Source: a virus (lineage: Duplodnaviria > Heunggongvirae > Uroviricota > Caudoviricetes). Taken from it: a stretch of DNA of 64,000 bases. The stretch lies in IMG/VR virus record IMGVR_UViG_3300032046_000009. One strand, 5' to 3'. Position numbers and translations under genes: made by a program. Every line of letters starts with the position of its first letter. The first letter of the stretch is position 1. This document shows positions 9,746 to 55,659 of this stretch, piece by piece. The notes beneath the pieces are model-generated. The model saw nothing but the letters and a program-made list of their open reading frames with translations, searched no databases and was not told where the DNA came from.

Positions 9746-9961
9746 TTATGTAAATTGAACCTGTTCTATGTCTTTCTTTTTGATGATTTTTTCGAAACAG
9801 TCAGGGCAGAGCCACGTTAAAGTTATGCCAATTTTTCCTCTTTCTTGTACTTTTCCTTTCAAACGATAAACTTTTAGGCTGTTTTTCCAACAATTAGTGC
9901 AACTATAATAGCTTATTGATGAAATACAAATATTATAATCGGTTTTTGTTAGTTGAATCAT
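9746..9961 (-). CDS. small Zn-ribbon protein, last cassette of array A
   Basis: ATG in JM; ends EQVQFT then TAA (start of JM lost). Confidence 0.65.
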   Translation of the reverse strand: MIQLTKTDYNICISSISYYSCTNCWKNSLKVYRLKGKVQERGKIGITLTWLCPDCFEKIIKKKDIEQVQFT

Positions 9962-10200
9962 GTAAACTCTACCTTCTCTTTGCTGTTGAGAAAATCCTTA
10001 AACCACTTTTCCTTTTCCCATTCTTCAATGGGCGTATGAAAACCTAAAAGCGTCCCATGTTCTTTGTCAAACCTTTTTGAAAAATATCTCTTCCATTCTT
10101 CGTTACAACTTTCGCAGAGAACAGCCAATAATAGTTTAATTGGAAATTGACCGCTAACTATTCTTTTGCATTTTCTACAACGTCCTTTAAATTTTGTCAT
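9958..10200 (-). CDS. small Zn-ribbon protein (family B)
   Basis: JM both ends; CRKC..CESC-x3-W; ends EKVEFT. Confidence 0.7.
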   Translation of the reverse strand: MTKFKGRCRKCKRIVSGQFPIKLLLAVLCESCNEEWKRYFSKRFDKEHGTLLGFHTPIEEWEKEKWFKDFLNSKEKVEFT

Positions 10201-10424
10201 GTAAATTCAACCGTTTCCCGTTCACTCTTCCAATACTCACATGAACAACCTAAACGATAAGAATGTCTAGGACTACCTAACGGAGTTTTCACGTCCCTTA
10301 AAAATCCTGTAGCTTTCCCGTTCGGTTCAGTTAAGTTAGGTTGTGAGCGCATCTCTGTGCATTTATAATAAATCTTGTCGAGATTCCTCTTGTTCGAACA
10401 GTTAAAGCAACCTTTCTCTTTCAA
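10197..10424 (-). CDS. small Cys protein (family C, GCFNC..GCSC)
   Basis: track 10197..10493 trimmed to TTG in JM 10421-10441; ends ETVEFT. Confidence 0.6.
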   Translation of the reverse strand: MKEKGCFNCSNKRNLDKIYYKCTEMRSQPNLTEPNGKATGFLRDVKTPLGSPRHSYRLGCSCEYWKSERETVEFT

Positions 10425-10660
10425 GTGAAATTGACCTTCTCTTTTGTTGTTACTTTGCGTTTTAATAGCCACTTTTTGAAAAAAGACTCCCAAGTATTAT
10501 CTCTTCTATCGTGAAAGAAGTCATGTCGTTCTTGTGATTTTTCCCACAAAATACCATGTGAGTCGCAAAGATAAAGTTTTTCCTCAGTCTGTATATCGTG
10601 ATAATTTGCATAACCTTTTTTACCGCAAATACAACACTTTTTACGGTTTGAATTTATCAT
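10421..10660 (-). CDS. small Zn-ribbon protein (family B)
   Basis: JM both ends; CCICG..CDSHGILW; ends EKVNFT. Confidence 0.7.
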   Translation of the reverse strand: MINSNRKKCCICGKKGYANYHDIQTEEKLYLCDSHGILWEKSQERHDFFHDRRDNTWESFFKKWLLKRKVTTKEKVNFT

Positions 10661-10836
10661 GTGAACTCGACCTGTTCTTTTTCGTTAGCCTTTTTATAAC
10701 AAACATTTAGGGTATTGCCTTTGAATCCTCTTTCTATTGAACATGGTTTGCAATAACACACGTTCGCGCTCAATTTATGCAAACTATCACATATATTATT
10801 GCAAGTGAATCTCTTTCCACAAACTTTACAAATCAT
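10657..10836 (-). CDS. 59-aa 8-Cys protein (family A; not in track)
   Basis: hand translation MICKVCGKRFTCNNIC..CYCKPC..EQVEFT; ATGA overlaps. Confidence 0.6.
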   Translation of the reverse strand: MICKVCGKRFTCNNICDSLHKLSANVCYCKPCSIERGFKGNTLNVCYKKANEKEQVEFT

Positions 10837-11051
10837 GTGAACGTCACCGTTTCCCGTCCCTTTAGACGGTTAATAATCTCTCGCGCCTTCATTTTGTCTA
10901 AGAGTTCCATTATCTCTGGGTTATCGGAAAGTAACTTGTCTATGCGTTCGCCTTGCTCTCTGAGCCTGTCTAGCTCGTACATCATACAATTAAAGCATAA
11001 TTTCTCGTTAATTCGTTGTTTGAACTCGTTTCCACATTTAGAACAAATCAT
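10833..11051 (-). CDS. small Zn-ribbon protein (family B)
   Basis: track 10833..11087 trimmed to ATG in JM; ends ETVTFT. Confidence 0.65.
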   Translation of the reverse strand: MICSKCGNEFKQRINEKLCFNCMMYELDRLREQGERIDKLLSDNPEIMELLDKMKAREIINRLKGRETVTFT

Positions 11052-11194
11052 GTGAAACAGACCTTTTCTCTTCCTTTGTTGTTGCATTGCTTACACATTC
11101 TTGAACCTATCTTCTTTGCATCCGCATAGTTTTTAACGGGAATATTGAGAGGTCTGCCACATTTTGAACACGGTATAACGAGAACGCCCGTCAT
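11048..11194 (-). CDS. 48-aa Zn-ribbon protein (not in track)
   Basis: CSKCG..CKQC; ends EKVCFT; ATGA overlaps. Confidence 0.55.
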   Translation of the reverse strand: MTGVLVIPCSKCGRPLNIPVKNYADAKKIGSRMCKQCNNKGREKVCFT

Positions 11195-11397
11195 GTGAAT
11201 AACACCTTCTCTTTTGGCTCTGGGGTTTTATATAGTTTGGTTCCTCGCGCTTTCATTTGAGAATTAAGTTCTTGACAACATTTATCAATTTCATCATAAT
11301 CAATACTGTTTTCGTGACATTTATCGTGCATCTTGCATTCCGTACACAAATCCTCATAATCGTACTCGATATAACCGTTATCGTCTATTGTTGTCAT
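11191..11397 (-). CDS. acidic Cys-containing small protein
   Basis: track trimmed to ATG in JM 11394; ends EKVLFT. Confidence 0.65.
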   Translation of the reverse strand: MTTIDDNGYIEYDYEDLCTECKMHDKCHENSIDYDEIDKCCQELNSQMKARGTKLYKTPEPKEKVLFT

Positions 11398-11588
11398 GTG
11401 AAACATACCTTCTCCTTTTGTTGTAATTCGATTAAATCTGTATCAGATACAACATACCTTTCGGTTTTATATCTTATATCAATGGTTCTGTTTGACATAA
11501 TTCTTGTAATTTTAACAAATGAACCTTTGGGGCAATGCCTAAAGCCAGCGTATTTTAGCTTTGCCTTATCGCCAACTTGAAACGTCAC
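11394..11588 (-). CDS. small beta-barrel (SH3/KOW-like) protein
   Basis: GTG after GGGTGAT; VGDKA motif; ends EKVCFT. Confidence 0.6.
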   Translation of the reverse strand: MTFQVGDKAKLKYAGFRHCPKGSFVKITRIMSNRTIDIRYKTERYVVSDTDLIELQQKEKVCFT

Positions 11589-11704
11589 GAGAAAATCACC
11601 CGTTCTTTTCTTCTGTCTAGCCAGCGATTAAACTCTGCCGTATGAATGAAACATCTAAGTTTTCCTGTATCTTTGTCGAACACTATTATAGCACAGTCAG
11701 TCAT
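11585..11704 (-). CDS. 39-aa protein (not in track)
   Basis: ATG in JM 11701; ends ERVIFS; GTGA overlap. Confidence 0.45.
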   Translation of the reverse strand: MTDCAIIVFDKDTGKLRCFIHTAEFNRWLDRRKERVIFS

Positions 11705-11994
11705 GTAAACGTCACCTTTTCCCTTTTGTCGTATTCTGTTTTTAAACTGTCCTTTAAAAGCCATCCATTCGGATTTTCTCTCATAAATTGTTCAGCATGA
11801 CTTTTTGCCTCTTCATAAGTGTTAAAGATTCCCTCAGTATCGTATTTTCCTGTTTTATCATCTCTGAGCCAAATCTCTGTGCACTCACATTCATTGGGAG
11901 TATGAGTTTCACAATCTTCATAAACGTCTAAACTAAGAAATTCGGTTCCTATTCTCCACGAATTAGTTCCATCCCAGACCCATTTACCCGTCAT
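11701..11994 (-). CDS. hypothetical small protein
   Basis: track 11701..12042 trimmed to ATG in JM; ends EKVTFT. Confidence 0.65.
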   Translation of the reverse strand: MTGKWVWDGTNSWRIGTEFLSLDVYEDCETHTPNECECTEIWLRDDKTGKYDTEGIFNTYEEAKSHAEQFMRENPNGWLLKDSLKTEYDKREKVTFT

Positions 11995-12188
11995 GTAAAG
12001 TTCACCTTTTCCTTTGCGTCTGGGTATCTTTGCGCTTTGCATTCTTTATGTTTATAGTTAAGAAAAGGCAATAAGCATAGAGGTTTATAGGGGTTCTTTC
12101 TGTGAACCTTATGAGGACATTCTGCCTCATCAATGCAAATAGGGACATCGTGATTTTTCAGAAGAGCCTTTAAGTTTAAATCCGTCAC
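11991..12188 (-). CDS. hypothetical small protein, first gene of array A
   Basis: GTG after GAGGGG; ends EKVNFT. Confidence 0.6.
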   Translation of the reverse strand: MTDLNLKALLKNHDVPICIDEAECPHKVHRKNPYKPLCLLPFLNYKHKECKAQRYPDAKEKVNFT

Positions 12189-12420: not shown

Positions 12421-12635
12421 ATACTGTTCCGTATCTTACAACTTTCGAGTTTAAGCCCATATTCAGCCTCTAATTGCTTCGCCCTCTTCGCCAGCCCGTC
12501 CTTATAGGATTTAACGCCCAGAATGAGCAGACAATCTTTCATCCATCCCTCATAAACGATTAGTTTGTCCCCCTCAATTCGAACTCCAAATCCAATATGC
12601 CCAAGTTTTCGAGCTACGTTCTTCAAATCAGTCAT
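12387..12635 (-). CDS. hypothetical small protein
   Basis: 82 aa; ATG in JM 12632. Confidence 0.65.
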   Translation of the reverse strand: MTDLKNVARKLGHIGFGVRIEGDKLIVYEGWMKDCLLILGVKSYKDGLAKRAKQLEAEYGLKLESCKIRNSISRMVFLEQPL

Positions 12636-12853
12636 GTAAATTCAACCCTCTCAGGAACCATGAATTTCACCTTTCGAATTATGTCACCGTGAACGAAATA
12701 CTTTGACCATTTTCGTTTTACCACACACACGGTAAAAACAAGTGGGGTTTTTTTTGTAATTGATTCAACTTCTAGTATCGTGCCTACGGGAACGTAAGGA
12801 TTATTTGATTTAAGCAACCGTACAAAATCGCCAGCTTTTATTATTTGATTCAT
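12632..12853 (-). CDS. small beta-barrel (SH3/KOW-like) protein
   Basis: AGDFV motif; JM both ends; ends ERVEFT. Confidence 0.65.
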   Translation of the reverse strand: MNQIIKAGDFVRLLKSNNPYVPVGTILEVESITKKTPLVFTVCVVKRKWSKYFVHGDIIRKVKFMVPERVEFT

Positions 12854-13005
12854 GTAAATGCAACCTTTTCCTTCGTCCGTTTGACCTCTACGACTGTGAG
12901 AATGCCCCCTTCGTCCATTCCGTTTGATAACAGACAGTCTTTCATGTCGAGCAATGTCGGGGGGTCGTCCCCTTCGTATGTAACTAAGAATTTCTTTTTA
13001 GACAT
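12850..13005 (-). CDS. 51-aa acidic protein (not in track)
   Basis: hand translation; ends EKVAFT; ATGA overlap. Confidence 0.5.
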   Translation of the reverse strand: MSKKKFLVTYEGDDPPTLLDMKDCLLSNGMDEGGILTVVEVKRTKEKVAFT

Positions 13006-13279: not shown

Positions 13280-13282
13280 TTT

Positions 13283-14762: not shown

Positions 14763-15050
14763 TTAGGTGAATTGAACACATTCTCTCTCAGGAGCTAAGA
14801 GGTTCCATCTGCCCTTATCATAAATGAATTGTTTTCCTTTGAAAAATAAAAAGTCAAAAGGCAAATCATTTTTACGACAAACTTCGCAAAAATAATGCAA
14901 AAAGTGAGTTTCCCTTATTTTTTGTCTATCGTGTTGTGAAAAACTATCTGTGAAAAAAAGTGTTCCACTTTGTTCTTCCAGAATAGAACCACAAGACGGA
15001 CATTTTCGAGTCAAGCGAATTGAACCGCAAGACGGACAATTTTGAATCAA
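14763..15050 (-). CDS. small double Zn-ribbon protein, terminal cassette
   Basis: TTG in JM 15047; CPSCG x2; ends ECVQFT then TAA. Confidence 0.65.
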   Translation of the reverse strand: MIQNCPSCGSIRLTRKCPSCGSILEEQSGTLFFTDSFSQHDRQKIRETHFLHYFCEVCRKNDLPFDFLFFKGKQFIYDKGRWNLLAPERECVQFT

Positions 15051-15262
15051 GTAAATTGCACCTGTTCTCTAGCTTCGGATTCTGCTAGATAAGTTGTGCA
15101 ACAACAACCATAACGATAATCTTCCGCACCGTCCTTCAAAATCTCCATAAAATTAATTCCATTTCTTCTTTGTCCCTCAATAAGATGACATTTTTTGAAT
15201 CGAGCGCAATTAAAACAACCACGCTCTATCGTTAATTCTTCGTCTTGCCCGATATATGTCAT
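15047..15262 (-). CDS. small Cys protein (family C, GCFNC..GCCC)
   Basis: track trimmed to ATG after GGTGAAAAA; ends EQVQFT. Confidence 0.6.
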   Translation of the reverse strand: MTYIGQDEELTIERGCFNCARFKKCHLIEGQRRNGINFMEILKDGAEDYRYGCCCTTYLAESEAREQVQFT

Positions 15263-15779: not shown

Positions 15780-16667
15780 TTAGGTATCCTCTTCTTTCTT
15801 TTTCAACTTTTCTACGTCTATCTCAGAGCTATCTTCGAAGAACGACCTAAATAAATTGCGCTCTTCTCTTGCGGTGTAAAGCGAACTTGCTATATCGATT
15901 ATGTCCTCTTCGGACATCTTCGCTTTGTAGAGTTTGCCGTAGTTTATTAGGTTGCCTGTCGTGAGGGGCGTTCTAAGTTTTCCGTTCTCGTATTCGGTTC
16001 GCGTCTTTTTGGCAATTTCTACGAACTTCGCAGAAAAGTCATAGTTTCCAGAGAACTTCTTTACCAATTCGCGTTCTTTCTGGGGGCTAAGGTATTCGAT
16101 TATCAGACCTTCAAATCGTCTAATGGTTGCAATGTTCTCGATGAATGTCCCAGAGTAACCCGATTTTTCTGAGGGGTTATAGCTGATAACGAGATAGTGC
16201 TGTGCTGTCCGTGTGAATTGCTTCTTGTATTCTGGAATATACACGTTTCCCCTAAAGTCTGCCAATGATTCCAGAAGTGAAATTATCGATGGTTCTGCAT
16301 AGTTGAACCCGTCTATGTAAAGCAGACCTTTCTCGCTGTTCAACCATTGAATTATGATTCCATCTCTTGTTTCTGTGCTTCCAGCTTTCAGAGTATCACA
16401 TGCCAGCAAATCCCACTTTGTCACGTCCCGTGTTAAGACAATTTCAAAAAGCGGAACCTCTAACAATTCAGCCAACTTGTGAACAAGAGTTGTTTTGCCC
16501 GTCCCCGTTTCGCCGACTAATCTAAGGTTGCCGACAATTTCAAGAATCGCTCTTGACTTTTCAATGTAGCCATGTTCGTCCACGAACTCGATGCCTTTGA
16601 CGTAGATGCCAGCACCTTCAAGTGCTGATTCGACCTTTGCATGAATCTTTTCAAATTCTGAGTTCAT
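15780..16667 (-). CDS. AAA+ ATPase, MoxR/CbbQ/NorQ-like
   Basis: Walker A GETGTGKTT; Walker B LLYIDGF; VWA partner in the adjacent unit. Confidence 0.8.
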   Translation of the reverse strand: MNSEFEKIHAKVESALEGAGIYVKGIEFVDEHGYIEKSRAILEIVGNLRLVGETGTGKTTLVHKLAELLEVPLFEIVLTRDVTKWDLLACDTLKAGSTETRDGIIIQWLNSEKGLLYIDGFNYAEPSIISLLESLADFRGNVYIPEYKKQFTRTAQHYLVISYNPSEKSGYSGTFIENIATIRRFEGLIIEYLSPQKERELVKKFSGNYDFSAKFVEIAKKTRTEYENGKLRTPLTTGNLINYGKLYKAKMSEEDIIDIASSLYTAREERNLFRSFFEDSSEIDVEKLKKKEEDT

Positions 16668-16805
16668 CTTTATTACCTTACGAGTATAGATGCCAGCGTC
16701 CTATTTAAATGTTTGCTTAGAAAGACCATGTTCATTTTAGTTAATCAACTGATTAAAATTTCTCAAAACCCCTCTCCCGCCCGAACCAAAGGTTGCACCA
16801 AAAGT

Positions 16806-17033
16806 TTAAGTAAATTGCACTTCTTCTCTGCCCGATTCTTGGCAATGAAATTGAACAACGTTAAAAGATTCATAAGTAGAGTCTGCCCCAGACAACTTTG
16901 AAAACTCTTCCGAAACTTTTTTTACACACTCAAGACAATAACAGTCATTCGGATTTTTAAGTCTATCACTTTTGCATTTTCCGTTGCAGAAAAAATTGTT
17001 CTTACAATGTGTGCAATGTCTTTTATATTTCAC
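16806..17033 (-). CDS. 8-Cys small protein (family A)
   Basis: CTHCKNNFFCNGKC..CYCLEC; ends EEVQFT then TAA. Confidence 0.65.
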   Translation of the reverse strand: MKYKRHCTHCKNNFFCNGKCKSDRLKNPNDCYCLECVKKVSEEFSKLSGADSTYESFNVVQFHCQESGREEVQFT

Positions 17034-17039
17034 AAGTTA

Positions 17040-17204
17040 TCACATTCGAGTTTTGTTAAGTTTACTTCGTTTCAATTCGCAATAAAGCATAGTCCACAAG
17101 AATTTTTTGGTTAGCTTTATCTTGTGTTTATTGTATTCGAAGAGGTCTTTAGAAATTTCGTCTGCCAATTTTCTACATTCTTTATCGTCAATTATGCAAA
17201 CCAT
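17040..17204 (-). CDS. 54-aa protein (not in track)
   Basis: ATG 6 nt after VWA gene stop; hand translation. Confidence 0.45.
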   Translation of the reverse strand: MVCIIDDKECRKLADEISKDLFEYNKHKIKLTKKFLWTMLYCELKRSKLNKTRM

Positions 17205-17210
17205 TTTTAC

Positions 17211-18938
17211 TCACTTCTGGGTTTCTACGTTTAGATACACGTTTAGGAATCTCTGAGGTAATTCGGATATTTGGTTTATCCGTGTTCGTGAGCACTTCAA
17301 GTTTTTCACTTTGCTTGCGAAGGTTTCTACATTCTCACAGTCACAGAAACCTATGAAGATACATTCAATTCCAGCTTTCGCATATTGGTCGATTAATTCC
17401 TCTGCTTTCGTTTCTTCATCACCACAGAAGCAGAAATCGGACGCAATGACCAGAATCTTTCGGCGTTCGCCTTTAATCGTATTGAACATTCTCAGGCTTG
17501 CCTCTAATCCAACGGAAACCTCAGTACCGCCAGCATTCACCGAAATAGCTCCAATTCTTGCCCGTGTGTTTTCGAAGGTTTCAAAGAAAGTCTTTACTTT
17601 CTGGGTATCTGCCCCAAAGCACCCAATACTGAACCCGTAATCGTCAACGTAATGTCCAAAGACCTCATTCAGTATAGTGGTTATCTTTTCAGCCTCTATT
17701 CGACTAACTGACCCTGAGAAATCGAACCAAAATTGAATTGCGACTTGTTCCTTCTCAAATTTTGTTGTTGTACGCAGATACACATTGCGAACGGTTCCCC
17801 TAAAGCTGTTTGTGTAGATGCGTGGAACAATTGGACTCATCATTTTTCCGCGTTTCTGGAAAATGTCCCGTTGAACTCTCGGTTTCATTTTCTTCTTTAG
17901 TTGATTCAATAGCTCGGAAATTTCAGGCTTGCATTCGTCCAGAAGTTTCGAATACGCCTCAAAATCTGGGTCTGGGGCTGGAATCTCTTCGCCTGTGCCT
18001 TCGCCAGCACCCGAACCTTTCTGCAAATCTTCTAGGTGTTTCTTCTTGTCCTCTTCTGCCTTTTCTTGCTCTTCCTCTTTTTCTAGTAATTGCCTAAGTC
18101 TGTCCGATATTTTGCCCTTTACGTTGCCCCCTCTTCTAGAAACGACATATTCCTTTGTCGTATAGTCAGCGTTCAAGTGTTTAGCTACCAATTCATAAAT
18201 CGTTTGGCAAGACCTTATTATGTCGAGTTTGACACGTTGATATTTCGTCCCCTCTAGCACTTTAAGGGCTGTTTCACAGTCCTTTCTAGCATCTGGGCTT
18301 AGTTTGTTCCATAACTCTGTGCATTTAGCCTCATATAGACCTTCATTGCACAAAATTGCAACCATGTAAACCCCGTCTTGTTGTCCAGCTTGAATTGTCA
18401 TGTTTGGAATTTCGTTTTCGCCTAAGTTTTCGCCCTTCGGTAAGATGGTTGACATGGCTATTTGTGGCTTTTCAATTGTGTTGTCTATCATGTCTTTTAG
18501 TATCAAATTCGCCAAAAGTAGCCTCTTGCCGACATCAAACCTGTATCTGAGAATTATGAAATGATTCACGCGCTTATCTTCAACTATGTTGCAAACTTCG
18601 TGAGCCAGCTTGTAAAATCCTCTCTGTCGTTTGATTTTTGTTGTCCAATTGTTGAAAAATTCCCAATTCGGTTTTGTTAGAATCAGATGACCGCACTCGT
18701 GAACCATGTCACCGTCTAGGATTTTTCGGAATAGACGGGGCGATGTTTTCACGAAATCGGGATAACTCTGTAAACTCAAAGAAATCTCAAAGTTTTCCAT
18801 ATTGAAAGCAGAAGTTGGTTGTTCTGGAATATACTTGATACGAATCCGTTTGTCCTTCGTAATTGCTATGGCAAGATTCCTCATCTCGTCAAGTATCTTA
18901 GAGAAGTTGTTCGTCTTTGCTTGTTTCTGCTTTGTCAT
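17211..18938 (-). CDS. VWA-domain protein with N-terminal HExxH (CbbO/NorD-like)
   Basis: HECGH; MIDAS DFSGS; VIASDF; acidic linker. Confidence 0.75.
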   Translation of the reverse strand: MTKQKQAKTNNFSKILDEMRNLAIAITKDKRIRIKYIPEQPTSAFNMENFEISLSLQSYPDFVKTSPRLFRKILDGDMVHECGHLILTKPNWEFFNNWTTKIKRQRGFYKLAHEVCNIVEDKRVNHFIILRYRFDVGKRLLLANLILKDMIDNTIEKPQIAMSTILPKGENLGENEIPNMTIQAGQQDGVYMVAILCNEGLYEAKCTELWNKLSPDARKDCETALKVLEGTKYQRVKLDIIRSCQTIYELVAKHLNADYTTKEYVVSRRGGNVKGKISDRLRQLLEKEEEQEKAEEDKKKHLEDLQKGSGAGEGTGEEIPAPDPDFEAYSKLLDECKPEISELLNQLKKKMKPRVQRDIFQKRGKMMSPIVPRIYTNSFRGTVRNVYLRTTTKFEKEQVAIQFWFDFSGSVSRIEAEKITTILNEVFGHYVDDYGFSIGCFGADTQKVKTFFETFENTRARIGAISVNAGGTEVSVGLEASLRMFNTIKGERRKILVIASDFCFCGDEETKAEELIDQYAKAGIECIFIGFCDCENVETFASKVKNLKCSRTRINQISELPQRFLNVYLNVETQK

Positions 18939-19400: not shown

Positions 19401-19544
19401 TTGAAATTAATCATTTGATTAAATAAGCTCAACAGTTCGCATCGTGCCTCGGCGTGAAGGGGCGTGAAGCAGTTAATCACCTGATTAATTAAATGCGCCT
19501 CGCACCGCGTCCCGTTTGGCAAAAGCGACCATTGTGAAAGCTGT

Positions 19545-20028: not shown

Positions 20029-20154
20029 CTAATCGAACCGAACTTTCTCTTTTTGTTTATACAATAGTTTTAGACATTCGGGACAAAAAAGTGCACGACT
20101 TCCAGCGAAGGGTTTGCAGAACCAAAGTTTTCCACATCTAAAACATTCTATCAT
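20029..20154 (-). CDS. 41-aa Zn-ribbon protein (not in track), last cassette of array E
   Basis: CFRCG..CPEC; ends EKVRFD + TAG; abuts G-rich hub. Confidence 0.5.
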   Translation of the reverse strand: MIECFRCGKLWFCKPFAGSRALFCPECLKLLYKQKEKVRFD

Positions 20155-20165
20155 TTTCTCTTCTG

Positions 20166-20396
20166 TCAATCGAAACTCACCTTTTCTGGAATCCGAAACA
20201 TAAGTTCAGAAATTCTAATATCGACTTTTCTCTTCTTTATCAGACAAACCATTTGCATTGGAAAATTTCTCTCTTTTTTATGTAGTTCCGCAGACCTAGT
20301 TAATCGGTTGCTCAATGCTTGTAAAGTATGAATTTCACTTTTCAATTCGACAAGTGGTTTCTTTTTCCATTGTGCAAGCGGAGATTTATGGGTCAT
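20166..20396 (-). CDS. basic small protein
   Basis: ATG in JM 20393; ends EKVSFD. Confidence 0.65.
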   Translation of the reverse strand: MTHKSPLAQWKKKPLVELKSEIHTLQALSNRLTRSAELHKKERNFPMQMVCLIKKRKVDIRISELMFRIPEKVSFD

Positions 20397-20608
20397 GTGA
20401 ATGACACCGTTTCTTTAGCTTTACAGAATCGTGAACAAACTTCTTTCAAATCTTTTGGGTATTCCCCAACTTCGGATTTCTCAAACTTTCGCGCACAATC
20501 GGAGCAATAACAACCCCCGTATTGCACTTTGCCATGACTAAGACCTAATCTAGCGCACCCATTATTGCACACGAAATGTTTTCCGCATTTTCCACAAATT
20601 TTGTTCAT
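20393..20608 (-). CDS. 8-Cys small protein (family A)
   Basis: CGKCGKHFVCNNGC..CYCSDC; JM both ends. Confidence 0.7.
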   Translation of the reverse strand: MNKICGKCGKHFVCNNGCARLGLSHGKVQYGGCYCSDCARKFEKSEVGEYPKDLKEVCSRFCKAKETVSFT

Positions 20609-20883
20609 GTGAATCGAACAACCTCTCTCATATTAAACCAGAGATTCCAGCAATATTCCCATCTTCCAAAATGTTTCCCATGAAAGATGCCCCATTCGTC
20701 ATAACATCCTCTACAAATCCAGATGTTATGTTTAAATCCGCTATTTACTAAAAAGATTAAAACCGCATCTATCGTTTTGGTATCTTCGTCTTTATGTTCA
20801 AAATTATTAGAATTGCTTACGTGGAACCATTTCTTTTTTGGAAGAGTTACAGTTATTGGTTTTCCACATTTCGAACATTTCAA
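20605..20883 (-). CDS. small Zn-ribbon protein (family B)
   Basis: CSKCG..CRGCYDEW; ends EVVRFT. Confidence 0.7.
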   Translation of the reverse strand: MKCSKCGKPITVTLPKKKWFHVSNSNNFEHKDEDTKTIDAVLIFLVNSGFKHNIWICRGCYDEWGIFHGKHFGRWEYCWNLWFNMREVVRFT

Positions 20884-21089
20884 GTGAACTCTACCTTCTC
20901 TTTGAGTTTGGCTAAATATTCTGGAATATGGTCTGAAATTATTATGTCATTCGGATATTTTTCATGACTCCACTTGACAAAAACCATCCAACATTTTATA
21001 CAAAGAAACGCCCATTTTCCGTTATTCTTTTCTCCGCACACGGGACAAAAATCTGGAAGTTCTTCTTTATCAACGAGTTTGTTTGTCAA
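20880..21089 (-). CDS. small Zn-ribbon protein (family B)
   Basis: track trimmed to TTG in JM 21086; CPVCG..CIKCW. Confidence 0.65.
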   Translation of the reverse strand: MTNKLVDKEELPDFCPVCGEKNNGKWAFLCIKCWMVFVKWSHEKYPNDIIISDHIPEYLAKLKEKVEFT

Positions 21090-21283
21090 GTGAATAACAC
21101 CTTCTCTTTTTCGGGTATTCCCCCATAGCACAATTCAAGTGACCCTATATCTTCAGTAAATTTTGTTCCCCATTTTTTGATTGAACATTCTTTACAATAG
21201 CATAATGTAGCGTCTGGGGAACATTCTTCGTCACAATTACAGAAGAACTTTTTTCCGCAAACTTGGCACGTCATTTCTTTCAA
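21086..21283 (-). CDS. 8-Cys small protein (family A)
   Basis: TTG in JM; CQVCGKKFFCNC..CYCKEC. Confidence 0.7.
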   Translation of the reverse strand: MKEMTCQVCGKKFFCNCDEECSPDATLCYCKECSIKKWGTKFTEDIGSLELCYGGIPEKEKVLFT

Positions 21284-21423
21284 GTGAATTGAACCTCTTC
21301 TTTTTGTTTTCTCACTTCACAAATCGAACGTTGTCTGCAACTCTTTTGACAAAAATCGTCATAATGATTTATCTCCCCGACATCGCAGTAAATTATTTTT
21401 CCAGCGCAGTATATTTCCGTCAT
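21280..21423 (-). CDS. 47-aa Cys-rich protein (not in track)
   Basis: hand translation; ends EEVQFT; JM both ends. Confidence 0.55.
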   Translation of the reverse strand: MTEIYCAGKIIYCDVGEINHYDDFCQKSCRQRSICEVRKQKEEVQFT

Positions 21424-21629
21424 GTGAATTGCACCACTTCTTTTAAGTCAACCTCTTCGCAACCTTCTGGACGACCCGACCCATGATTGCATTTTTCACA
21501 CCAACAAACGCTATATTCGTGAGGACATTTTCCCGTTATTGAAGATTTAGTCCATCCTCTCCCTTTACAAGTGAAAGTTCTACCACAATTACCGCACTTC
21601 TTTGTTAGAGCTAATGGATATTTCTTCAT
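21420..21629 (-). CDS. 8-Cys small protein (family A)
   Basis: CGNCGRTFTCKG..CWCEKC. Confidence 0.7.
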   Translation of the reverse strand: MKKYPLALTKKCGNCGRTFTCKGRGWTKSSITGKCPHEYSVCWCEKCNHGSGRPEGCEEVDLKEVVQFT

Positions 21630-21841
21630 GTAAATTGCACTACCTCTTTATCTACCCTTTTAATAAACTTGTCCCAGAGAAAGGTTGCTTTTGCTTCGGA
21701 TTCTGGAATGTCGGCATCGTTTTTGTGAAGTTCGTAAAAATTATACCATTTTTCTCTGCATTTTTGACAAAGAATATCGTTATTCGTTTGAAAAGATTCA
21801 CCGCATTTTTCACAAATACGATTATAGGATTTTTGTGTCAT
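21626..21841 (-). CDS. small Zn-ribbon protein (family B)
   Basis: CEKCG..CQKCREKW; ends EVVQFT. Confidence 0.7.
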   Translation of the reverse strand: MTQKSYNRICEKCGESFQTNNDILCQKCREKWYNFYELHKNDADIPESEAKATFLWDKFIKRVDKEVVQFT

Positions 21842-21939
21842 GTGAATTGCACTCTCACGGGTTCTTTCTCAATTTCAAAACGGTCATACCATTTTTTGAG
21901 ACTTCTATATTTTGTAAAAATATGTTGTAGATGGTTCAT
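21838..21939 (-). CDS. 33-aa protein
   Basis: track 21838..22041 trimmed to ATG in JM 21936. Confidence 0.45.
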   Translation of the reverse strand: MNHLQHIFTKYRSLKKWYDRFEIEKEPVRVQFT

Positions 21940-22151
21940 GTAAATTGTACAACCTCTTGATAACGATATTTGTTTCGCTCCATTCGTTCTTCGCAAGAAC
22001 GACCATTTTCCCTTACTGTTTTTGCGTGGCATAATCCACATTCACAACCATTACTATGTTTGCTCTTTTCAAGTTTTCCACAATCATTATCACAGTAAAA
22101 AATTCGTCCACACGTTCTACAAGTTCTTTTGAAAAGTTCGGGGACTATCAT
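21936..22151 (-). CDS. 8-Cys small protein (family A)
   Basis: CRTCGRIFYCDNDC..CECGLC. Confidence 0.7.
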   Translation of the reverse strand: MIVPELFKRTCRTCGRIFYCDNDCGKLEKSKHSNGCECGLCHAKTVRENGRSCEERMERNKYRYQEVVQFT

Positions 22152-22528
22152 GTAAACTCAACCTTTTCTTTTGAATGTAAACGTACAAGTTCGCTATATC
22201 CCTCATTTATTTCTAGTGTCATATCTAAAATTTCTGAATATGCCAAGTCGGTTGTGACAGTCCCGTAACAAGTTCCACTAGCAATTACCTTATCGCCCTT
22301 CCAAATCTCATAGTCAAATTGGTAGCTATCATTTTCTTTATCTATCTCTTTGAAAGCTCCAATAGGAAAAATCAGTTCAAACCCCTTATCCCATAATTTC
22401 TCCCGTTTCAAAATGATAAGGATATTTTTCTCTATCGTGTCATCTGAATATTCTTCCATAATATCTGTTAGTTCGGTTTCAAACTCAGGTTCTTTGCGTA
22501 AAGTCCAATTCGAAAAAGTGCCACTCAA
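22148..22528 (-). CDS. acidic hypothetical protein
   Basis: 126 aa; TTG in JM 22525; ends EKVEFT. Confidence 0.65.
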   Translation of the reverse strand: MSGTFSNWTLRKEPEFETELTDIMEEYSDDTIEKNILIILKREKLWDKGFELIFPIGAFKEIDKENDSYQFDYEIWKGDKVIASGTCYGTVTTDLAYSEILDMTLEINEGYSELVRLHSKEKVEFT

Positions 22529-22671
22529 GTAAACTCAACTCGCTCTCTGTTATCTGGAATAAAGCAAGTCCAACTTGTGCAATACCACAATCCTCTTTTT
22601 GAATCCCATACTCTTCCCTCACAATCCAACTCACACTTTTTGCAATAATCAGGTTGTTCGTTTCGATTCAT
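22525..22671 (-). CDS. 48-aa Zn-ribbon protein
   Basis: track trimmed to ATG in JM 22668; CKKCELDC. Confidence 0.55.
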   Translation of the reverse strand: MNRNEQPDYCKKCELDCEGRVWDSKRGLWYCTSWTCFIPDNRERVEFT

Positions 22672-22895
22672 GTAAATTCTACCTGTTCTTTGTCTATAAT
22701 TCCTATGAACTTGTGATACTCTTCTTTCCAAACTTTATTTTGAAGTTGGAAACCTTCTAATATCTGAATCTTTTTCTCATAAATTTTTATCCAAACTGTT
22801 CTGCACCCCATACAAATAATTCTCATAGTTTCTTTAGATTCTCCTATCTTAACTTCTCGTCCCTGAATTTCTTTGTGACATTTAGCGCACTTCAA
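22668..22895 (-). CDS. small Zn-ribbon protein (family B)
   Basis: track trimmed to TTG in JM 22892; CAKCH..CMGCRTVW. Confidence 0.65.
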   Translation of the reverse strand: MKCAKCHKEIQGREVKIGESKETMRIICMGCRTVWIKIYEKKIQILEGFQLQNKVWKEEYHKFIGIIDKEQVEFT

Positions 22896-23576: not shown

Positions 23577-23585
23577 TGCAGACAC

Positions 23586-24544: not shown

Positions 24545-24605
24545 TTTTATCAACAAGAGTATATTAGCATCGTCCTATATAAACCTTAGCCCAGAACTAC
24601 CATAC

Positions 24606-32243: not shown

Positions 32244-32244
32244 T

Positions 32245-36582: not shown

Positions 36583-36639
36583 AGCTGAGAAGTAGTATGT
36601 GCAAACTACTATATAAAGGTTGTGGTAGAAGAACCATGC

Positions 36640-42499: not shown

Positions 42500-42726
42500 G
42501 TGAATTCCACCTTCTCCTTTGCATCAATTCCAAAATCCATTCTACTTCTACAACGCTCTTTTCCAGAGACAATTTCTCTGCCACCCTTCTCTCTCTCAAA
42601 TTCTTGAATGCAAGCCCCACAATAGCAAGCAGTTTCTTGTTTAGCTTTAAGTTCTATTCCACATTCTCCGTGACACATAAAACTGCAATGGCAATAACAA
42701 CACTTTTTATGATACCATCGTTTCAT
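42496..42726 (-). CDS. 8-Cys small protein (family A)
   Basis: CCYCHCSFMCHGEC..CYCGAC; ends EKVEFT + TAG. Confidence 0.7.
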   Translation of the reverse strand: MKRWYHKKCCYCHCSFMCHGECGIELKAKQETACYCGACIQEFEREKGGREIVSGKERCRSRMDFGIDAKEKVEFT

Positions 42727-42971
42727 GTAAACTGCACCTTTACTGGTCTATTTATTCTCTTTGTTCTTACTTTTAGTCCTAAGTAATTTGAAAAATACAT
42801 ACCGAACTCATAAGCATGTTCTTCACAAAATTCATCGTGGCATATATGTGTTATTTTTGTAGCAAATTCACGAGTGCTCCCTTCGCTTCGCACCATTTTG
42901 TATGACAAAATAATCTCTGATTCTTTTCTACAATCAACCGCGAGACAACAGGTTAAAACACGACCATTCAA
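42723..42971 (-). CDS. small protein (family E), paralog of 44306..44554
   Basis: track trimmed to TTG in JM 42968; AYEFGMYFSNYLGLKV. Confidence 0.6.
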   Translation of the reverse strand: MNGRVLTCCLAVDCRKESEIILSYKMVRSEGSTREFATKITHICHDEFCEEHAYEFGMYFSNYLGLKVRTKRINRPVKVQFT

Positions 42972-43096
42972 GTAAACTGCACCTTTTCCCTTCTGTGTTT
43001 GTTCTGTCTCCAAATTGCAACAACAAGCATCCAATCTATTACTCTAGCTTTGTATTGAATTTCTGTATCCCAATTATCAAATAACTTTGACTTCAC
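42968..43096 (-). CDS. 42-aa protein (not in track)
   Basis: GTG in JM variant ACGTGA; ends EKVQFT. Confidence 0.4.
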   Translation of the reverse strand: MKSKLFDNWDTEIQYKARVIDWMLVVAIWRQNKHRREKVQFT

Positions 43097-43446
43097 GTAA
43101 ATTGCACCTTTTCTCTAGTGATTCCTTCTCTGGAAGCCCAACGTATATTAGATGCGATTCCATTTACACGACATTGAGTTTGTGATAAAAATTCAATCTC
43201 AGTTATTAGTATTTCCCCTGTAGTAGTTTCAATCATTGGTTTTGAATCCTTCATTGATGTACTTTCTATATGAAGCCTGAACATTTTGTTATTATCACAA
43301 TCTTTACATAATTTCTGTGCGTTATCTATTTTAAGTTCGATTTCCCAAATGTCGCCACCATTCACTTTTACTGTCATATCGACTGATGAAATCCCCTCAT
43401 ATTTCTTGTTACCCTGAACTAGATATGCCCGTAAAAATTTGCTCAT
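43093..43446 (-). CDS. hypothetical protein
   Basis: track trimmed to ATG in JM 43443; ends EKVQFT. Confidence 0.6.
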   Translation of the reverse strand: MSKFLRAYLVQGNKKYEGISSVDMTVKVNGGDIWEIELKIDNAQKLCKDCDNNKMFRLHIESTSMKDSKPMIETTTGEILITEIEFLSQTQCRVNGIASNIRWASREGITREKVQFT

Positions 43447-43658
43447 GTAAACTTCACCTTTACAGGTCTCTTTAATTCTTCTCTCCATTCAGTAGCAATT
43501 CTTTTCCATTTTGAAAGACGTAAAGTTTTATTACGGTCTTTGATATATATTCTTACTCTTTTTATCATTTTGCGTTTTTGTCTTTTTGCCTCTAATACCA
43601 TTGCAATAATTAGACCACAAATTGTACTTATCATTCCAATAATTAGTAGTTCAGTCAT
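43443..43658 (-). CDS. small membrane protein with basic tail
   Basis: N-terminal TM; ends VKVKFT. Confidence 0.65.
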   Translation of the reverse strand: MTELLIIGMISTICGLIIAMVLEAKRQKRKMIKRVRIYIKDRNKTLRLSKWKRIATEWREELKRPVKVKFT

Positions 43659-43882
43659 GTAAATTGCACTACCTCTCGTTCTAATTCTGGATGACTTTCT
43701 GGTTTAGCTATTATCTGTCCGCAATTGTGACATTGAACAACTTTGTTATAAGAATTCCATTTTATTGCTCCATTATATCCACAACCGAAACAAATATTAG
43801 AATGTATAGACCTATGTTCTCGCGTAGTCAAACGAACCAAACCACAATCTTTATCATAATGCAAAACTTTGAGTTGTTTCAT
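43655..43882 (-). CDS. small Zn-ribbon protein
   Basis: CFGCG..CHNCG; ends EVVQFT. Confidence 0.65.
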   Translation of the reverse strand: MKQLKVLHYDKDCGLVRLTTREHRSIHSNICFGCGYNGAIKWNSYNKVVQCHNCGQIIAKPESHPELEREVVQFT

Positions 43883-44061
43883 GTGAATTGAACCTTCTCC
43901 CGTTCATTCATAATTGACACATAAACCGTACAATGTTCTCTTATTCTGCAAGATTTTATGCAATATTCTTTGTTAAGCGAATTATGTACTGTGCATCCCG
44001 AAATACTCCATTTAACGTTCAGTTTAGAAGGATGCGTTAAAAGAACTGGTTCAGCACTCAT
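43879..44061 (-). CDS. small Cys protein
   Basis: 60 aa; ends EKVQFT. Confidence 0.6.
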   Translation of the reverse strand: MSAEPVLLTHPSKLNVKWSISGCTVHNSLNKEYCIKSCRIREHCTVYVSIMNEREKVQFT

Positions 44062-44309
44062 GTAAACTGCACCACTTCTCGTTCTTCATATTTCCCACTC
44101 ATAAAGTTTTCCCAAGAATTAGTCCACGCACTTTGGAATTTAATAGAATCAACATTCTTTACTTCCTTATCATAAACTTTTCCCCACGCCGCACGACAAT
44201 TTGGGCAAAGATAAACAGTTTCCAAATTTTGTCCATTTTTATCAATTGGATGTACTCTTACTAACGCATCAGACATATTATTGCACTTGTCACATGGTCT
44301 CTTCATCAT
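44058..44309 (-). CDS. small Zn-ribbon protein (family B)
   Basis: CDKC..CPNCRAAW; ends EVVQFT. Confidence 0.7.
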   Translation of the reverse strand: MMKRPCDKCNNMSDALVRVHPIDKNGQNLETVYLCPNCRAAWGKVYDKEVKNVDSIKFQSAWTNSWENFMSGKYEEREVVQFT

Positions 44310-53297: not shown

Positions 53298-53410
53298 TTT
53301 TTCTTCTCCGTCCATTCTCTGCAACTTCCCCACCATCTATGGGTGCATTCTTCATTTCCACAGGTTGCACAACAATTATACGGTCTAAAGTTAACGGGAT
53401 ACCTTCTCAT
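53294..53410 (-). CDS. 38-aa Cys protein (not in track)
   Basis: ATGA overlaps both ends; CCATCG..C. Confidence 0.45.
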   Translation of the reverse strand: MRRYPVNFRPYNCCATCGNEECTHRWWGSCREWTEKKK

Positions 53411-54525
53411 TTCTTTCTTCGCTCCATGTAATCTTCATAGAATGTGAACAAGTTTCCACGACTTGAGTAGAGATGTTTTCGGCATTCTTCTGAAACGGCT
53501 TTAGCAATAAGTGGCATATCATGTTTTGGTGTACCATCTAATCCAAAGTCCGCTTCGACATGGCTTATTGCACCCATGATTTCGCTCTCTGGAATTTGTG
53601 GTAACTTTGGCGGTCCCTCTCGTATCCGTTCGACTATTGGCTTTGGAATATCTAGTTTCACTTTTGCTTGAATATACTCTCCTTCTTTATCGAATGTTTT
53701 CAGTACCATACCTTCATCTTTGCCGTAATCCTTTTCGGTGTTACAGTATTCCAGAACGTGATTAGAAAACTTTATCAAATCCTTTATTGTTCTGTGTCTT
53801 GTTGATGCGTAAAGCTGGACAACTGGAATTTTAGAGTGATAACAATATTGATATACCTGTGTATAAGGAAGGAAATTCTTGAGTGCGGTATCGTAGATGT
53901 CAACAACGAACAGGATAGGCTTTTCATACCTTCTTATCCCTGTGACGCTTGCACCTTTGGCACATTCTTCTACAATTACTCTGAATGTTGGATTAGCTTC
54001 GATTAGTGCTACGATTTTCTCATAATCCTCTACACAATCTTTTCTTACTCTGGCTTGAATATCCTTAGCGGCTATCTCTTGATTATGACTTGATATGACA
54101 AACTCGAACTGTTTCCGCGTATGTGGTTTCTTTCTCTTCCATATGGTAACATTTTCACCATCTTCTTTTATTGTCCATTGAAGTCTAAGTCCGAGCAATG
54201 ACCTTCTAAGTCTGGCATTAGTTGTCAAAATAGGAATATGAGGGTAGTGTTCCCACGGAAGTTCTTTTTGGCGTTTCTTTGTTCCAGTAAAGAATGGAGA
54301 TATACATATGGCTGGTTTATCGAAATCAACCTTAACAGATTCCTTAACCAACTTTCTCAGTTTTGCATTATTACATCTAGTATCAATCAATTCTTTAGCT
54401 TTAGGGTCCCATTCGAATCCTTCTGGAATCTTTCGTGGTTTTCTCATCTTCTTTCCTAATTTCTCCAACCTTTTGAATACTTTGGAAGGTTTCCAGATTT
54501 CGTCTGGATTATCTGCGCCTGTCAT
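53407..54525 (-). CDS. ATP-dependent RNA/DNA ligase (nucleotidyltransferase superfamily)
   Basis: motif I KEDGEN, motif IV EGMVLK, motif V AKVK. Confidence 0.7.
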   Translation of the reverse strand: MTGADNPDEIWKPSKVFKRLEKLGKKMRKPRKIPEGFEWDPKAKELIDTRCNNAKLRKLVKESVKVDFDKPAICISPFFTGTKKRQKELPWEHYPHIPILTTNARLRRSLLGLRLQWTIKEDGENVTIWKRKKPHTRKQFEFVISSHNQEIAAKDIQARVRKDCVEDYEKIVALIEANPTFRVIVEECAKGASVTGIRRYEKPILFVVDIYDTALKNFLPYTQVYQYCYHSKIPVVQLYASTRHRTIKDLIKFSNHVLEYCNTEKDYGKDEGMVLKTFDKEGEYIQAKVKLDIPKPIVERIREGPPKLPQIPESEIMGAISHVEADFGLDGTPKHDMPLIAKAVSEECRKHLYSSRGNLFTFYEDYMERRKK

Positions 54526-55238
54526 TACTTCTCAGCCTTTTGTGCTTTCTCAAGTTTCTTTTTCAGTTCGGCTATGTGAGCGTCTTTCTTCTTTACTTCT
54601 TCTATGATTTTTGCAGTTTCGGGGTCAATCAATGGTATCATTTCTTCTTTTGTGGGTATCATAGTTTCTGGTTTCTTAAATTGTTCGGCTAGTTTTGCTT
54701 GGCGTTCAGCTTCCATTGCGGCACGTTCTTTCTTCTGTAGTTCATATGCTTCCGCTTTTCTAGTTTCCTGATAGTCTGTCTGGGTTTTTCTGAAAATTTC
54801 ATATTTGTAAATATCAGCGTTACTTATCGAATCTGGAACCACCTTTATGTCATCAGGCACACCCATTGCAATTTTTCGTTCACGATTCTTGGTAGCTTGT
54901 TCGCTTCTAATTTGCCAATTACGACATTTCTGGCACATTGATTTCTCTGGAATCATAACATTGTCAACCTCTGTGTTCGGTTCCTTTATTAGTCTTTTTC
55001 CTTTTTCTTCGAGACTTCGAGTTGAACCCTCAATTTTTGTGCCCATACTATTCCATTCGGTTGGAACAGTTTTACGAAATACCTTCTTACATTTAGGGCA
55101 ACCAAAAATATTCCCATCAATAGACTTCGCCAATTCTGTTTTGTCGTCAGGGCAAGTATGTTTCTTGAAGACGTAAACCTTCAACATTGTTACGAAATAA
55201 TCTTGTCCACATGATGAACATTTCTGTTTTTGTTTCAT
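54525..55238 (-). CDS. Zn-ribbon protein with coiled-coil tail
   Basis: CSSCG, CPKC, CQKC; TATA 55274-55281. Confidence 0.7.
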   Translation of the reverse strand: MKQKQKCSSCGQDYFVTMLKVYVFKKHTCPDDKTELAKSIDGNIFGCPKCKKVFRKTVPTEWNSMGTKIEGSTRSLEEKGKRLIKEPNTEVDNVMIPEKSMCQKCRNWQIRSEQATKNRERKIAMGVPDDIKVVPDSISNADIYKYEIFRKTQTDYQETRKAEAYELQKKERAAMEAERQAKLAEQFKKPETMIPTKEEMIPLIDPETAKIIEEVKKKDAHIAELKKKLEKAQKAEK

Positions 55239-55303
55239 ATTTCAATCACTATAAAGGTATTACGCACTCGTCCTATTTAAACTTTGCGTCAGAAACTCCA
55301 TGC

Positions 55304-55483
55304 TCAACTTCTAATCAATGAGAGGGTCAACCATTCATTGACGAGAACCATAATGTCATCTGGGTATTTTGGAAACTCTGGAATATCTAAAAATAGAAAC
55401 AACTCGATAAAGAAGTAAGGCTTTCGGTCTGTCCAATAAATTCTTTGAACCATCGAAGGACGTATTCTAAGTTCTTTTATCAA
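55304..55483 (-). CDS. 59-aa protein (not in track)
   Basis: TTG in JM variant TTCGATTGA; stop in TTGAGCATGG. Confidence 0.5.
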   Translation of the reverse strand: MIKELRIRPSMVQRIYWTDRKPYFFIELFLFLDIPEFPKYPDDIMVLVNEWLTLSLIRS

Positions 55484-55659
55484 TCGAACTTCACCTTTTC
55501 AGACTCTACACGAACTTTATAACAGTCATCAAATGCATGGGGATTCTCAATATACGAACGAGTTTTCTTCCAACATTTTCTACAGAAACATTCTTTGGTT
55601 CTACAGTCTTTAAACTTGGCATCACATTCGAATTCGATACCGCAATTAAGGCATTTCAA
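55480..55659 (-). CDS. 59-aa 8-Cys protein (family A; not in track)
   Basis: MKCLNCGIEFEC..CFCRKC; ends EKVKFD. Confidence 0.6.
   Translation of the reverse strand: MKCLNCGIEFECDAKFKDCRTKECFCRKCWKKTRSYIENPHAFDDCYKVRVESEKVKFD

Follow-up and report, generated by a model that had tools for sequence, protein, structure and literature searches.

A common C-terminal heptapeptide on about 85 small proteins encoded in dense gene arrays of a large, putatively archaeal virus-like element

The window analysed here is the complete 64,000-nt stretch of the virus record IMGVR_UViG_3300032046_000009. Coding is almost wholly confined to the minus strand and the GC content is 35-42% across the window. It carries about 85 very small genes (mini-genes), a few standing singly and the rest grouped into eight arrays, the largest with about 20 genes. 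Packing is dense: successive mini-genes overlap, the TGA stop codon of the first sharing bases with the ATG or TTG start codon of the second. The initial annotation had drawn attention to families of small cysteine-rich proteins in this region. It overlooked a shared heptapeptide, which is the most unusual feature of the region: 82 open reading frames (ORFs) on the minus strand and three on the plus strand, belonging to unrelated sequence families, end with the tail [K/R/P]-E-[K/V/R]-V-x-F-[T/D]-COOH.

The arrays and single genes are listed below; the cysteine-rich families A, B, and C and the paralogous pairs are described thereafter. Single genes are designated by their lower coordinate. Each of the coordinates given in the initial annotation marks a genuine ORF at its lower, stop-codon end, in all cases on the minus strand except 48973 (plus strand).

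9746-12188, minus strand: array 1, 12 consecutive tail-bearing mini-genes with 4-nt WTGA stop/start overlaps, including 10657 (family A), 9958 (family B; 10421 and 10833 are doubtful members), and 10197 (family C)
12632-13005, minus strand: two tail-bearing mini-genes, including 12632, a candidate "SH3-like" protein
14763-15262, minus strand: two tail-bearing genes, 15047 (family C) and 14763 (C-terminus ...ECVQFT, TAA stop without an overlapping start)
16806-17033, minus strand: tailed family A gene with a TAA stop and without a downstream overlap
20029-23585, minus strand: array 4, 17 consecutive tail-bearing mini-genes, including 20393, 21086, 21420, and 21936 (family A), 21626, 22668, and 23047 (family B; 20605 and 20880 are doubtful), and the pair member 22525
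24606-26469, minus strand: array 5, nine tail-bearing mini-genes, including 25534 and 26248 (family A), 25704 (family C), and the pair member 24890
36640-39225, minus strand: array 6, 12 tail-bearing mini-genes, including 36640 and 38760 (family B; 36783 and 38118 are weaker) and 38390 (family C)
41549-45906, minus strand: array 7, about 20 tail-bearing mini-genes, including 42496 (family A), 41549 and 44058 (family B), and the pairs 42248/44551 and 42723/44306
48701-49271, plus strand: inverted mini-array of three tail-bearing genes, namely a gene ending ...VKVQFD, the family A gene 48973-49155, and a 39-aa zinc-ribbon gene (49152-49271)
55480-55948, minus strand: array 8, three tail-bearing genes, including 55480 (family A, tail ...EKVKFD)
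27800-28090 (minus strand), 30168-30437, 30593-30817, 34176-34409, and 47412-47576: isolated tail-bearing genes

Junctions on the plus strand have the same layout as those on the minus strand, and the 39-aa zinc-ribbon protein (49152-49271) groups with family B. The plus-strand block extends to 49537, with the three tailed mini-genes being followed by a gene for an 89-aa ParB-like protein (motif ...LNGHHRY...), and interrupts an otherwise minus-strand genome. The family A gene 16806 is located directly 3' of a gene coding for a 575-aa protein, and tail genes hold the same position in two relatives of the element, L096 (from IMG/VR) and the more distant L008.

The tail-bearing proteins have a median length of 73 aa and a maximum of 126 aa. 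Some are devoid of cysteine, but overall the tail is associated with the presence of at least four Cys residues (odds ratio 3.7, p = 4e-5). In AlphaFold models, the tail is without secondary structure, with a mean predicted local distance difference test score (pLDDT) of about 60-70 in family A and below 50 for residues 75-82 in family B. When family A sequences are collected, 33 of 58 end with V-x-F-[T/D/S], the others with F-x-F-R or I-D-[D/E]-L. A literature search for the tail sequence and for DUF7569 (see below) returned nothing relevant; neither an element-wide C-terminal tag, nor its overlap with the next ribosome-binding site and start codon, nor lineage-specific variants of such a tag were found described.

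Cysteine accounts for 3.5% of the residues. Among the 120 small proteins encoded between 9.7 and 56 kb, 63 contain at least four Cys and 39 at least two CxxC motifs; of the array mini-proteins, about two-thirds contain at least four Cys. Because the C-terminal tail is common to unrelated proteins, the last eight residues were trimmed before clustering. An all-against-all BLASTP comparison then gave 43 pairs at E<1e-3 compared to none in five shuffles, so that real paralogous families exist on this one element. The Cys spacings are conserved beyond chance, with the regular expressions for families A, B, and C matching 9-11, 8-10, and 3-4 ORFs, respectively, but close to none in shuffled sequences (0-0.005 matches for family A in 200 shuffles).

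Family A, with eight conserved Cys, was proposed to have 11 members, and exactly these form one jackhmmer cluster (tail-trimmed, E<1e-4, no shuffled-decoy matches). Each member is recovered by a hidden Markov model built from the others (E 2.5e-10 to 6e-5). Among 1.84 billion proteins, 52 representatives match family A at E<=1e-3. These homologues are 57-171 aa long, have one or two domains, and show the same Cys pattern; two longer repetitive matches (329 and 540 aa) were set aside. The absence of a named family for A and C was borne out by sequence comparison to Pfam, PHROG, and PDB, and a fold comparison of family A gave no match to a known structure. Assignment of family A to the MYND, LIM, or C2H2 zinc fingers was considered and rejected: zf-MYND matches one of the 11 members (5.7e-5), LIM reaches only E 0.06, and the C2H2-related PDB profile matches span the CxxCGKxF knuckle only.

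Family B had been credited with at least 15 members. A core of nine was obtained by jackhmmer (9958, 21626, 22668, 23047, 36640, 38760, 41549, 44058, and 49152 on the plus strand), of which 36640 and 49152 had not been listed, and about 10 of the 14 listed members are supported by leave-one-out searches. Several others did not hold up: 36783, 38118, and 30593 are weak (E 1e-3 to 1e-2), 10833 and 20605 marginal, while 10421 and 20880 were not recovered. The unlisted ORF 47412-47576 also matches the regular expression. Family B proteins have 71-97 aa including the tail; the first knuckle reads CxKCG, the second CxxC followed by xxxW, without the Gly. The AlphaFold2 model is a beta zinc-ribbon followed by two helices (a helical hairpin) with pLDDT 78-90. 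Member 44058 matches Pfam DUF7569 (PF24453), a domain without known function, with 33.2 bits (gathering threshold 27). When ten full-length members were scanned singly, the other nine had no match at E<=0.01; a second member matches DUF7569 at E<=1 when tail-trimmed.

All four members of family C, whose signature is GCFNC...GC[CS]C, are recovered by leave-one-out searches (E 1e-8 to 5e-3). The weakest is 25704, which is without the second GC[CS]C motif, and jackhmmer at E<1e-4 retains the pair 15047/38390. Family C homologues are confined to relatives of this element. Five further pairs were identified by jackhmmer: 9746/24890, 22525/37073, 24171/30456, 42248/44551, and 42723/44306. The 91-aa form of 44551 matches Pfam Lar_restr_allev (PF14354) with 31.7 bits (gathering threshold 28.6), while its paralogue 42248 has no match. 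Orthologues in the syntenic relative L015 have the same precomputed DUF7569 and Lar_restr_allev matches, the latter being marked as weak. A further proposed group, about five SH3/KOW-like proteins, did not prove to be a family: leave-one-out E-values are 1.3-38, the strict GD-x-V motif occurs in only two of the five, and only 23310 has a KOW match, which is sub-threshold. Judging from their Cys patterns, the Cys-rich mini-proteins probably bind zinc, and families A and C would be new, though of a familiar general type, that of small proteins binding zinc.

L015 has the same gene order as the window, with 45-97% amino-acid identity, and was used as reference for the ratio of nonsynonymous to synonymous substitution rates (dN/dS). 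This is 0.09-0.66 for tail genes (median 0.27, n = 17) and has a median of 0.125 for other genes (n = 12). Since dN/dS is about 0.27, the mini-ORFs are real genes. Selection on tail genes is purifying rather than diversifying, but somewhat relaxed. Array gene content turns over between the window and L015 by gain or loss of whole genes, while the flanking larger genes stay. Two L015 genes, one for a 108-aa protein with a weak match to Pfam Acb5 (L015:12886-13212) and one for a transglutaminase-core protein (L015:10941-11603), have no counterpart at the same places in the window and thus illustrate the turnover of accessory genes in the arrays.

Upstream of arrays and single genes, a module of about 50 nt occurs in about 30 copies, with one copy preceding each of the operon-like arrays. 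On the gene strand it reads TTGAGCATGG-N3-TTCT-N5-AA-N2-TTTATA(TA/AG)GGACGcTG and is typically found 25-40 nt before a GGTGA-type Shine-Dalgarno sequence and start codon. It looks like an archaeal promoter core consisting of a B recognition element (BRE) and a TATA box, and the conserved element further upstream may bind a regulator encoded by the element itself. For several terminal tail genes, the stop codon (TTGA) overlaps the start of a promoter module. Additionally, a 16-bp palindrome (TTAATCA-NN-TGATTAA) is present in 25 copies in the window, with 0.09 expected. All copies are intergenic and are positioned either just 5' of the promoter module or between TATA box and start codon; because of this location around promoters, the palindrome is a candidate operator for a dimeric repressor.

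24562-24614, minus strand: reference copy of the promoter module
6628-6680, 9283-9335, 16688-16740, 36596-36648, 45925-45977, and 60817-60869: further module copies
14304, 18955, 23596, 27756, 28100, 30124, 32646, 35844, 40214, 55260, 56643, and 58701: positions of further module copies
1679-1694, 9267-9282, 9332-9347, 16741-16756, 19407-19422, 36268-36283, and 56711-56726: palindrome copies

We lean towards the view that a large archaeal virus-like element here encodes a co-regulated set of small proteins for interaction with its host, all equipped with one disordered C-terminal handle for a shared partner. One promoter type would drive many short arrays, and the genes within each would be translationally coupled. 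The arrays would then supply a co-regulated, probably early, set of small binders acting on macromolecules of the host or of the element (takeover, anti-defence, or regulation). An interaction with the host is suggested by the shared-promoter logic known from archaeal viruses (PMC11065993), by the pair with a Lar-family match, and by the turnover of the arrays. The diversified arsenal of anti-defence or host-takeover factors suggested in the initial annotation is thereby plausible, by analogy.

The mini-proteins might instead be the element's own regulators or structural accessory factors (in transcription, replication, or assembly), with the expansions reflecting its own regulatory complexity. 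Zinc ribbons are typical of proteins binding nucleic acids or RNA polymerase, and ORF 32067-32258 nearly reaches the threshold for a TFIIB zinc-ribbon (28.4 bits, threshold 29). Purifying selection would fit as well, and many copies of one promoter combined with a palindromic candidate operator suggest dense self-regulation. However, accessory or host-interaction genes typically show the kind of turnover seen in the arrays between close relatives, with larger flanking genes being stable; one pair has a match to the Lar anti-restriction family, and about 85 regulators on one element would be unprecedented. We therefore regard this alternative as unlikely.

For the tail itself, it has to be decided whether the peptide or the underlying RNA is conserved. 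The heptapeptide could be a mere by-product of a translation-coupling junction, made up of a Shine-Dalgarno sequence, a spacer, and a start codon overlapping the stop codon, without any function as a peptide. Indeed, the tail codons double as signals for the following gene, providing both its Shine-Dalgarno sequence (AGGTG, 8 nt upstream) and its start codon. The tail is present at 59 of the 67 4-nt overlap junctions in the window. In-array overlaps are ATGA (39) or TTGA (34); immediately before TGA, A was counted 41 times and T 36 times. Tail Lys is encoded by AAG in 35 of 39 cases, compared to 31% in gene bodies, and tail Val by GTG in 57%, compared to 14%; it is this codon bias which places AGGTG 8 nt before the start. 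Tail Thr is almost exclusively encoded by ACA or ACT, the wobble base thus creating an ATG or TTG start codon. In L008, where the tail has the form x-F-[I/V/Q]-F-R, the Arg codon and stop codon together often read AGGTGA.

Several observations are nevertheless at odds with a purely RNA-based origin. Conservation of the tail shows a 3-nt periodicity: Phe is encoded by TTT (34) or TTC (42), wobble bases of Gln (CAA/CAG) and Glu are near ordinary usage, and neither the TTY nor the AC positions have a known role in initiation. Eight of the 4-nt overlaps function without a tail and, conversely, at least seven tail genes stop at TAA or TAG without an overlapping start. L096 has four consecutive genes which end E-K-I-K-F-T, E-K-V-L-F-T, E-T-V-I-F-T, and E-K-V-V-F-T; their stop codons are TAA or TAG, Thr is encoded by ACA, ACC, or ACT, and the Shine-Dalgarno sequence is located after the stop codon, in spacers of 10-12 nt. 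L008 uses all three stop codons and maintains Arg via CGT, AGA, or AGG, even before long gaps. Across 18 orthologue pairs (window and L015), V and F never differ (18 of 18 each) despite three and five synonymous changes, respectively, whereas position x is the same in only 9 of 18. Because of the codon periodicity, the tail genes ending with TAA or TAG, the V/F conservation in L015, and the variants in L096 and L008, we conclude from sequence comparison that the tail is under selection at the amino-acid level, with an RNA-level overlay. A role as Shine-Dalgarno sequence is ruled out as sole cause by codon usage and by the same genes and relatives, and a by-product without peptide function is very unlikely.

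TTG starts nearly half of the coupled genes, and in 8 of the 18 orthologue pairs the Thr codon has switched between ACA and ACT, so that the downstream start codon switched between ATG and TTG. This near parity and interchange suggest that the choice of start codon is of little consequence when a ribosome initiates after terminating at an overlapping TGA. An alternative genetic code, or read-through of TGA to yield a polyprotein, was rejected: long conserved genes are intact under code 11, several of them ending with TGA, and successive mini-genes are in different frames. In a 2.7-kb fragment of a relative with 33% GC (L014) and in P0038, the motif [F/Y]-N-P-S-x-R is found repeatedly close to the C- or N-terminus of adjacent small proteins and may be another lineage-specific tag.

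The junction might also be a recombination site for the shuffling of gene cassettes, either integron-like or as a module boundary, with the tail being carried along. This would account for unrelated genes being flanked by the same junction, for the inverted plus-strand mini-array with its junctions intact, and for the whole-gene insertions and deletions that separate the arrays of the window and L015. Yet only about 12 of the 21 junction nucleotides are fixed, with variable wobble positions, which is too little identity for homologous exchange. Integron cassette arrays have attC-type structured sites and an integrase; here, the junctions are 4-nt coding overlaps without attC-like secondary structure, and no integrase domain was detected among the scanned proteins. 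As L096 and L008 retain the peptide and not the junction nucleotides, we find this explanation scarcely credible. Finally, the mini-proteins would resemble precursors of ribosomally synthesized and post-translationally modified peptides, with the tail as follower or recognition sequence, in that many small Cys-rich peptides share one terminal recognition sequence, as in the prochlorosin-type layout where many precursors are served by one enzyme; this is extremely improbable, given that a Pfam search of the larger window ORFs and the precomputed Pfam matches of the 10-kb flanks revealed no radical-SAM, lanthipeptide, cyclodehydratase, or peptide-transporter gene, that folded-domain patterns are predicted (zinc-ribbon and helices, pLDDT 78-90), and that the tail also occurs on Cys-free proteins, of up to 126 aa.

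Returning to a host-interaction repertoire with a C-terminal handle, the common tail would be a short linear motif that hands all mini-proteins to one shared partner. Our preferred guess is a protease or unfoldase that would set the lifetime of the mini-proteins, given that LonB, an HtrA-like protease, and several AAA+ ATPases are among the products of the element. The main alternative would be a packaging or export receptor, and a host hub is also possible. More specifically, we tentatively propose, as a possibility which we hold with some reserve, that the heptapeptide [K/R/P]-E-x-V-x-F-[T/D]-COOH and its lineage counterpart x-F-x-F-R-COOH constitute an element-wide address tag on about 85 small effectors, recognized by a single dedicated reader. 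Such a reader could be a protease or unfoldase timing their destruction, or a packaging or export receptor delivering the proteins, and the tag would co-evolve with its reader between lineages.

C-terminal address or degron motifs are familiar from HbYX (proteasome activators), I-x-I (small heat-shock proteins), PDZ-binding tails, and the ssrA tag. Like these, the tail is short, disordered, at the extreme C-terminus, and has alternating hydrophobic residues and a free carboxylate; the known motifs are read by one partner. In sequence, however, it fits none of them. It differs from PDZ ligands in its last residue, T or D. An HbYX proteasome-docking motif was rejected because position -3, which is hydrophobic in HbYX, is mostly Q or E in the window; I/V-F-R in L008 is closer, but this is a resemblance only. 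We know of no other case of about 85 different proteins on one element with such a common tail.

A number of points weigh against the picture of a host-directed repertoire with a shared reader. LonB is tied to the tail only by its residence on the same element. The HtrA-like protease (61814-62677) is rejected as a PDZ-type reader, as its HtrA match stops at residue 246 of 287, too close to the C-terminus to accommodate a PDZ domain. Within this element, conservation of E-K-V in the tail cannot be separated from that of the Shine-Dalgarno sequence. Whole-gene dN/dS below 1 does not point to an arms race. About 95 kb yielded no capsid, portal, or terminase gene, the search covering the window, its 10-kb flanks, and 22 kb of the IMG/VR relative; the search for hallmark genes along L096 and L097 gave only a weak DUF2213 match, an AAA ATPase, a LAGLIDADG endonuclease, and a PHROG of unknown function. 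Virus status is pointed to only by the entry of a 58.9-kb relative in IMG/VR as a viral contig (UViG, uncultivated virus genome). A sugar epimerase from the flank was uninformative as a host clue, as its best matches (35-43% identity) are to scattered bacteria and one metagenome-assembled genome of Bathyarchaeia.

Exact protein matches were obtained on three metagenome contigs, with lengths of 86 kb (ENA ERZ27247683), 137 kb, and about 152 kb. The element is at least 152 kb long. The sequence was seen again in several JGI, ENA, and Logan samples. The 137-kb contig (L012), from another sample, starts at about 8.6 kb of the window, about 1.2 kb before the first tail array, and heads away from the arrays; its start possibly reflects a break in the assembly, brought about by differences between strains within the arrays. 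No resemblance was detected when a collection of 50,697 phage records was searched at the DNA level (megablast) or, using tblastn, with the 575-aa protein. The sole protein match in this collection is that of an RNA ligase, with 27% identity to a Methanofastidiosa virus. We take the host to be an archaeon, as indicated by the BRE/TATA promoters, the LonB-type protease, and the DUF7xxx and HVO-type matches. An archaeal context also agrees with KaiC_arch-type matches and with the match of the RNA ligase.

Among the larger genes, those for a CobS/MoxR-like AAA+ protein (295 aa) and its 575-aa partner (15780-18938, minus strand) adjoin tail-gene arrays also in L008 and L096. Further larger genes in the window code for a KaiC/RadA-like ATPase (thermo_KaiC_2 being the top NCBIfam match), an SPFH protein, the RNA ligase, the HtrA-like protease, and glycosyltransferases. 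Neither tRNAs nor Rfam matches were found in the window. The SPFH/Band 7 gene (29203-30099, minus strand) adjoins a gene for a 226-aa protein (28435-29115, minus strand) with an N-terminal hydrophobic segment and imperfect 30-nt (10-aa) repeats (tandem repeat 28769-28896), which is possibly its NfeD-like partner. Just past coordinate 64000 (L009:1-10000) are genes for the LonB-type protease (760 aa) and a ParB_N protein, and a nine-gene cluster for sugar-nucleotide metabolism and glycosylation which includes PIG-L, SDR, hexapeptide transferase, glycosyltransferase, Asn synthase, UDP-GlcNAc 2-epimerase, and UDP-sugar dehydrogenase. Single-strand coding is shared with Borg-type elements, but their pervasive perfect tandem repeats are absent here: only six weak, imperfect tandem repeats were found in 64 kb.

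To our knowledge, the anti-restriction activity of Lar has been described only for the E. coli Rac prophage. Closer parallels to the mini-proteins are the one-domain C(P)XCG zinc-finger micro-proteins of Haloferax volcanii, for example, HVO_0758 and HVO_2753 (PMC11241148, PMC10716476, PMC6562870), several predicted members of which fail to bind zinc (PMC11241148). Both sets are archaeal, comprise proteins below about 70-90 aa with two CxxC(G) knuckles, and are present in each genome as dozens of paralogue-like copies. Weak, sub-threshold matches to the HVO_0758, HVO_2753_ZBP, and CPxCG_zf models were obtained with family B and several singletons. The Haloferax type is defined by two C(P)XCG motifs in less than about 70 aa; family B agrees in its first knuckle but is somewhat longer and has no Gly in the second. 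In contrast, the Haloferax genes are scattered on the chromosome, whereas those described here form coupled arrays on a mobile or viral element. Family A has eight Cys and family C another signature, and no common heptapeptide is reported from Haloferax.

Early and anti-defence genes of archaeal viruses code for small, dissimilar hypothetical proteins, each preceded by a strong BRE and TATA (TTTAWATA) consensus (Bhoobalan-Chitty et al. 2024, PMC11065993). A shared BRE/TATA consensus 5' of small genes is likewise found here, in the form of the promoter module. However, the published cases are mostly single genes at the termini of rudiviruses and lipothrixviruses of Sulfolobales, whereas here there are arrays of up to about 20 overlapping genes. 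Moreover, the module has the additional upstream element TTGAGCATGG-N3-TTCT. The host-takeover module of Bacillus phage SPO1, with about 26 small genes (bioRxiv 10.1101/569657), is similar in that small genes with strong expression signals, presumed to reprogram the host, are tightly clustered on a large virus; it differs in being bacterial, and neither a shared C-terminal motif nor Cys-rich paralogue expansions are described for it.

No part of viral and archaeal genomes is less well understood than their small proteins. Families A and C add cysteine-rich families without structural or functional precedent, and the junctions exemplify dual coding, with one 21-nt stretch serving as conserved peptide, ribosome-binding site, and start codon. 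A motif shared by about 85 unrelated proteins implies one common reader, and identifying it would show how a large archaeal element controls or delivers a whole accessory proteome at once. It would also provide a simple sequence rule for recognizing such effector sets in metagenomes. If the heptapeptide should indeed be an address tag, this would be a previously unknown layer of proteome organization in prokaryotic viruses, comparable to eukaryotic sorting signals.

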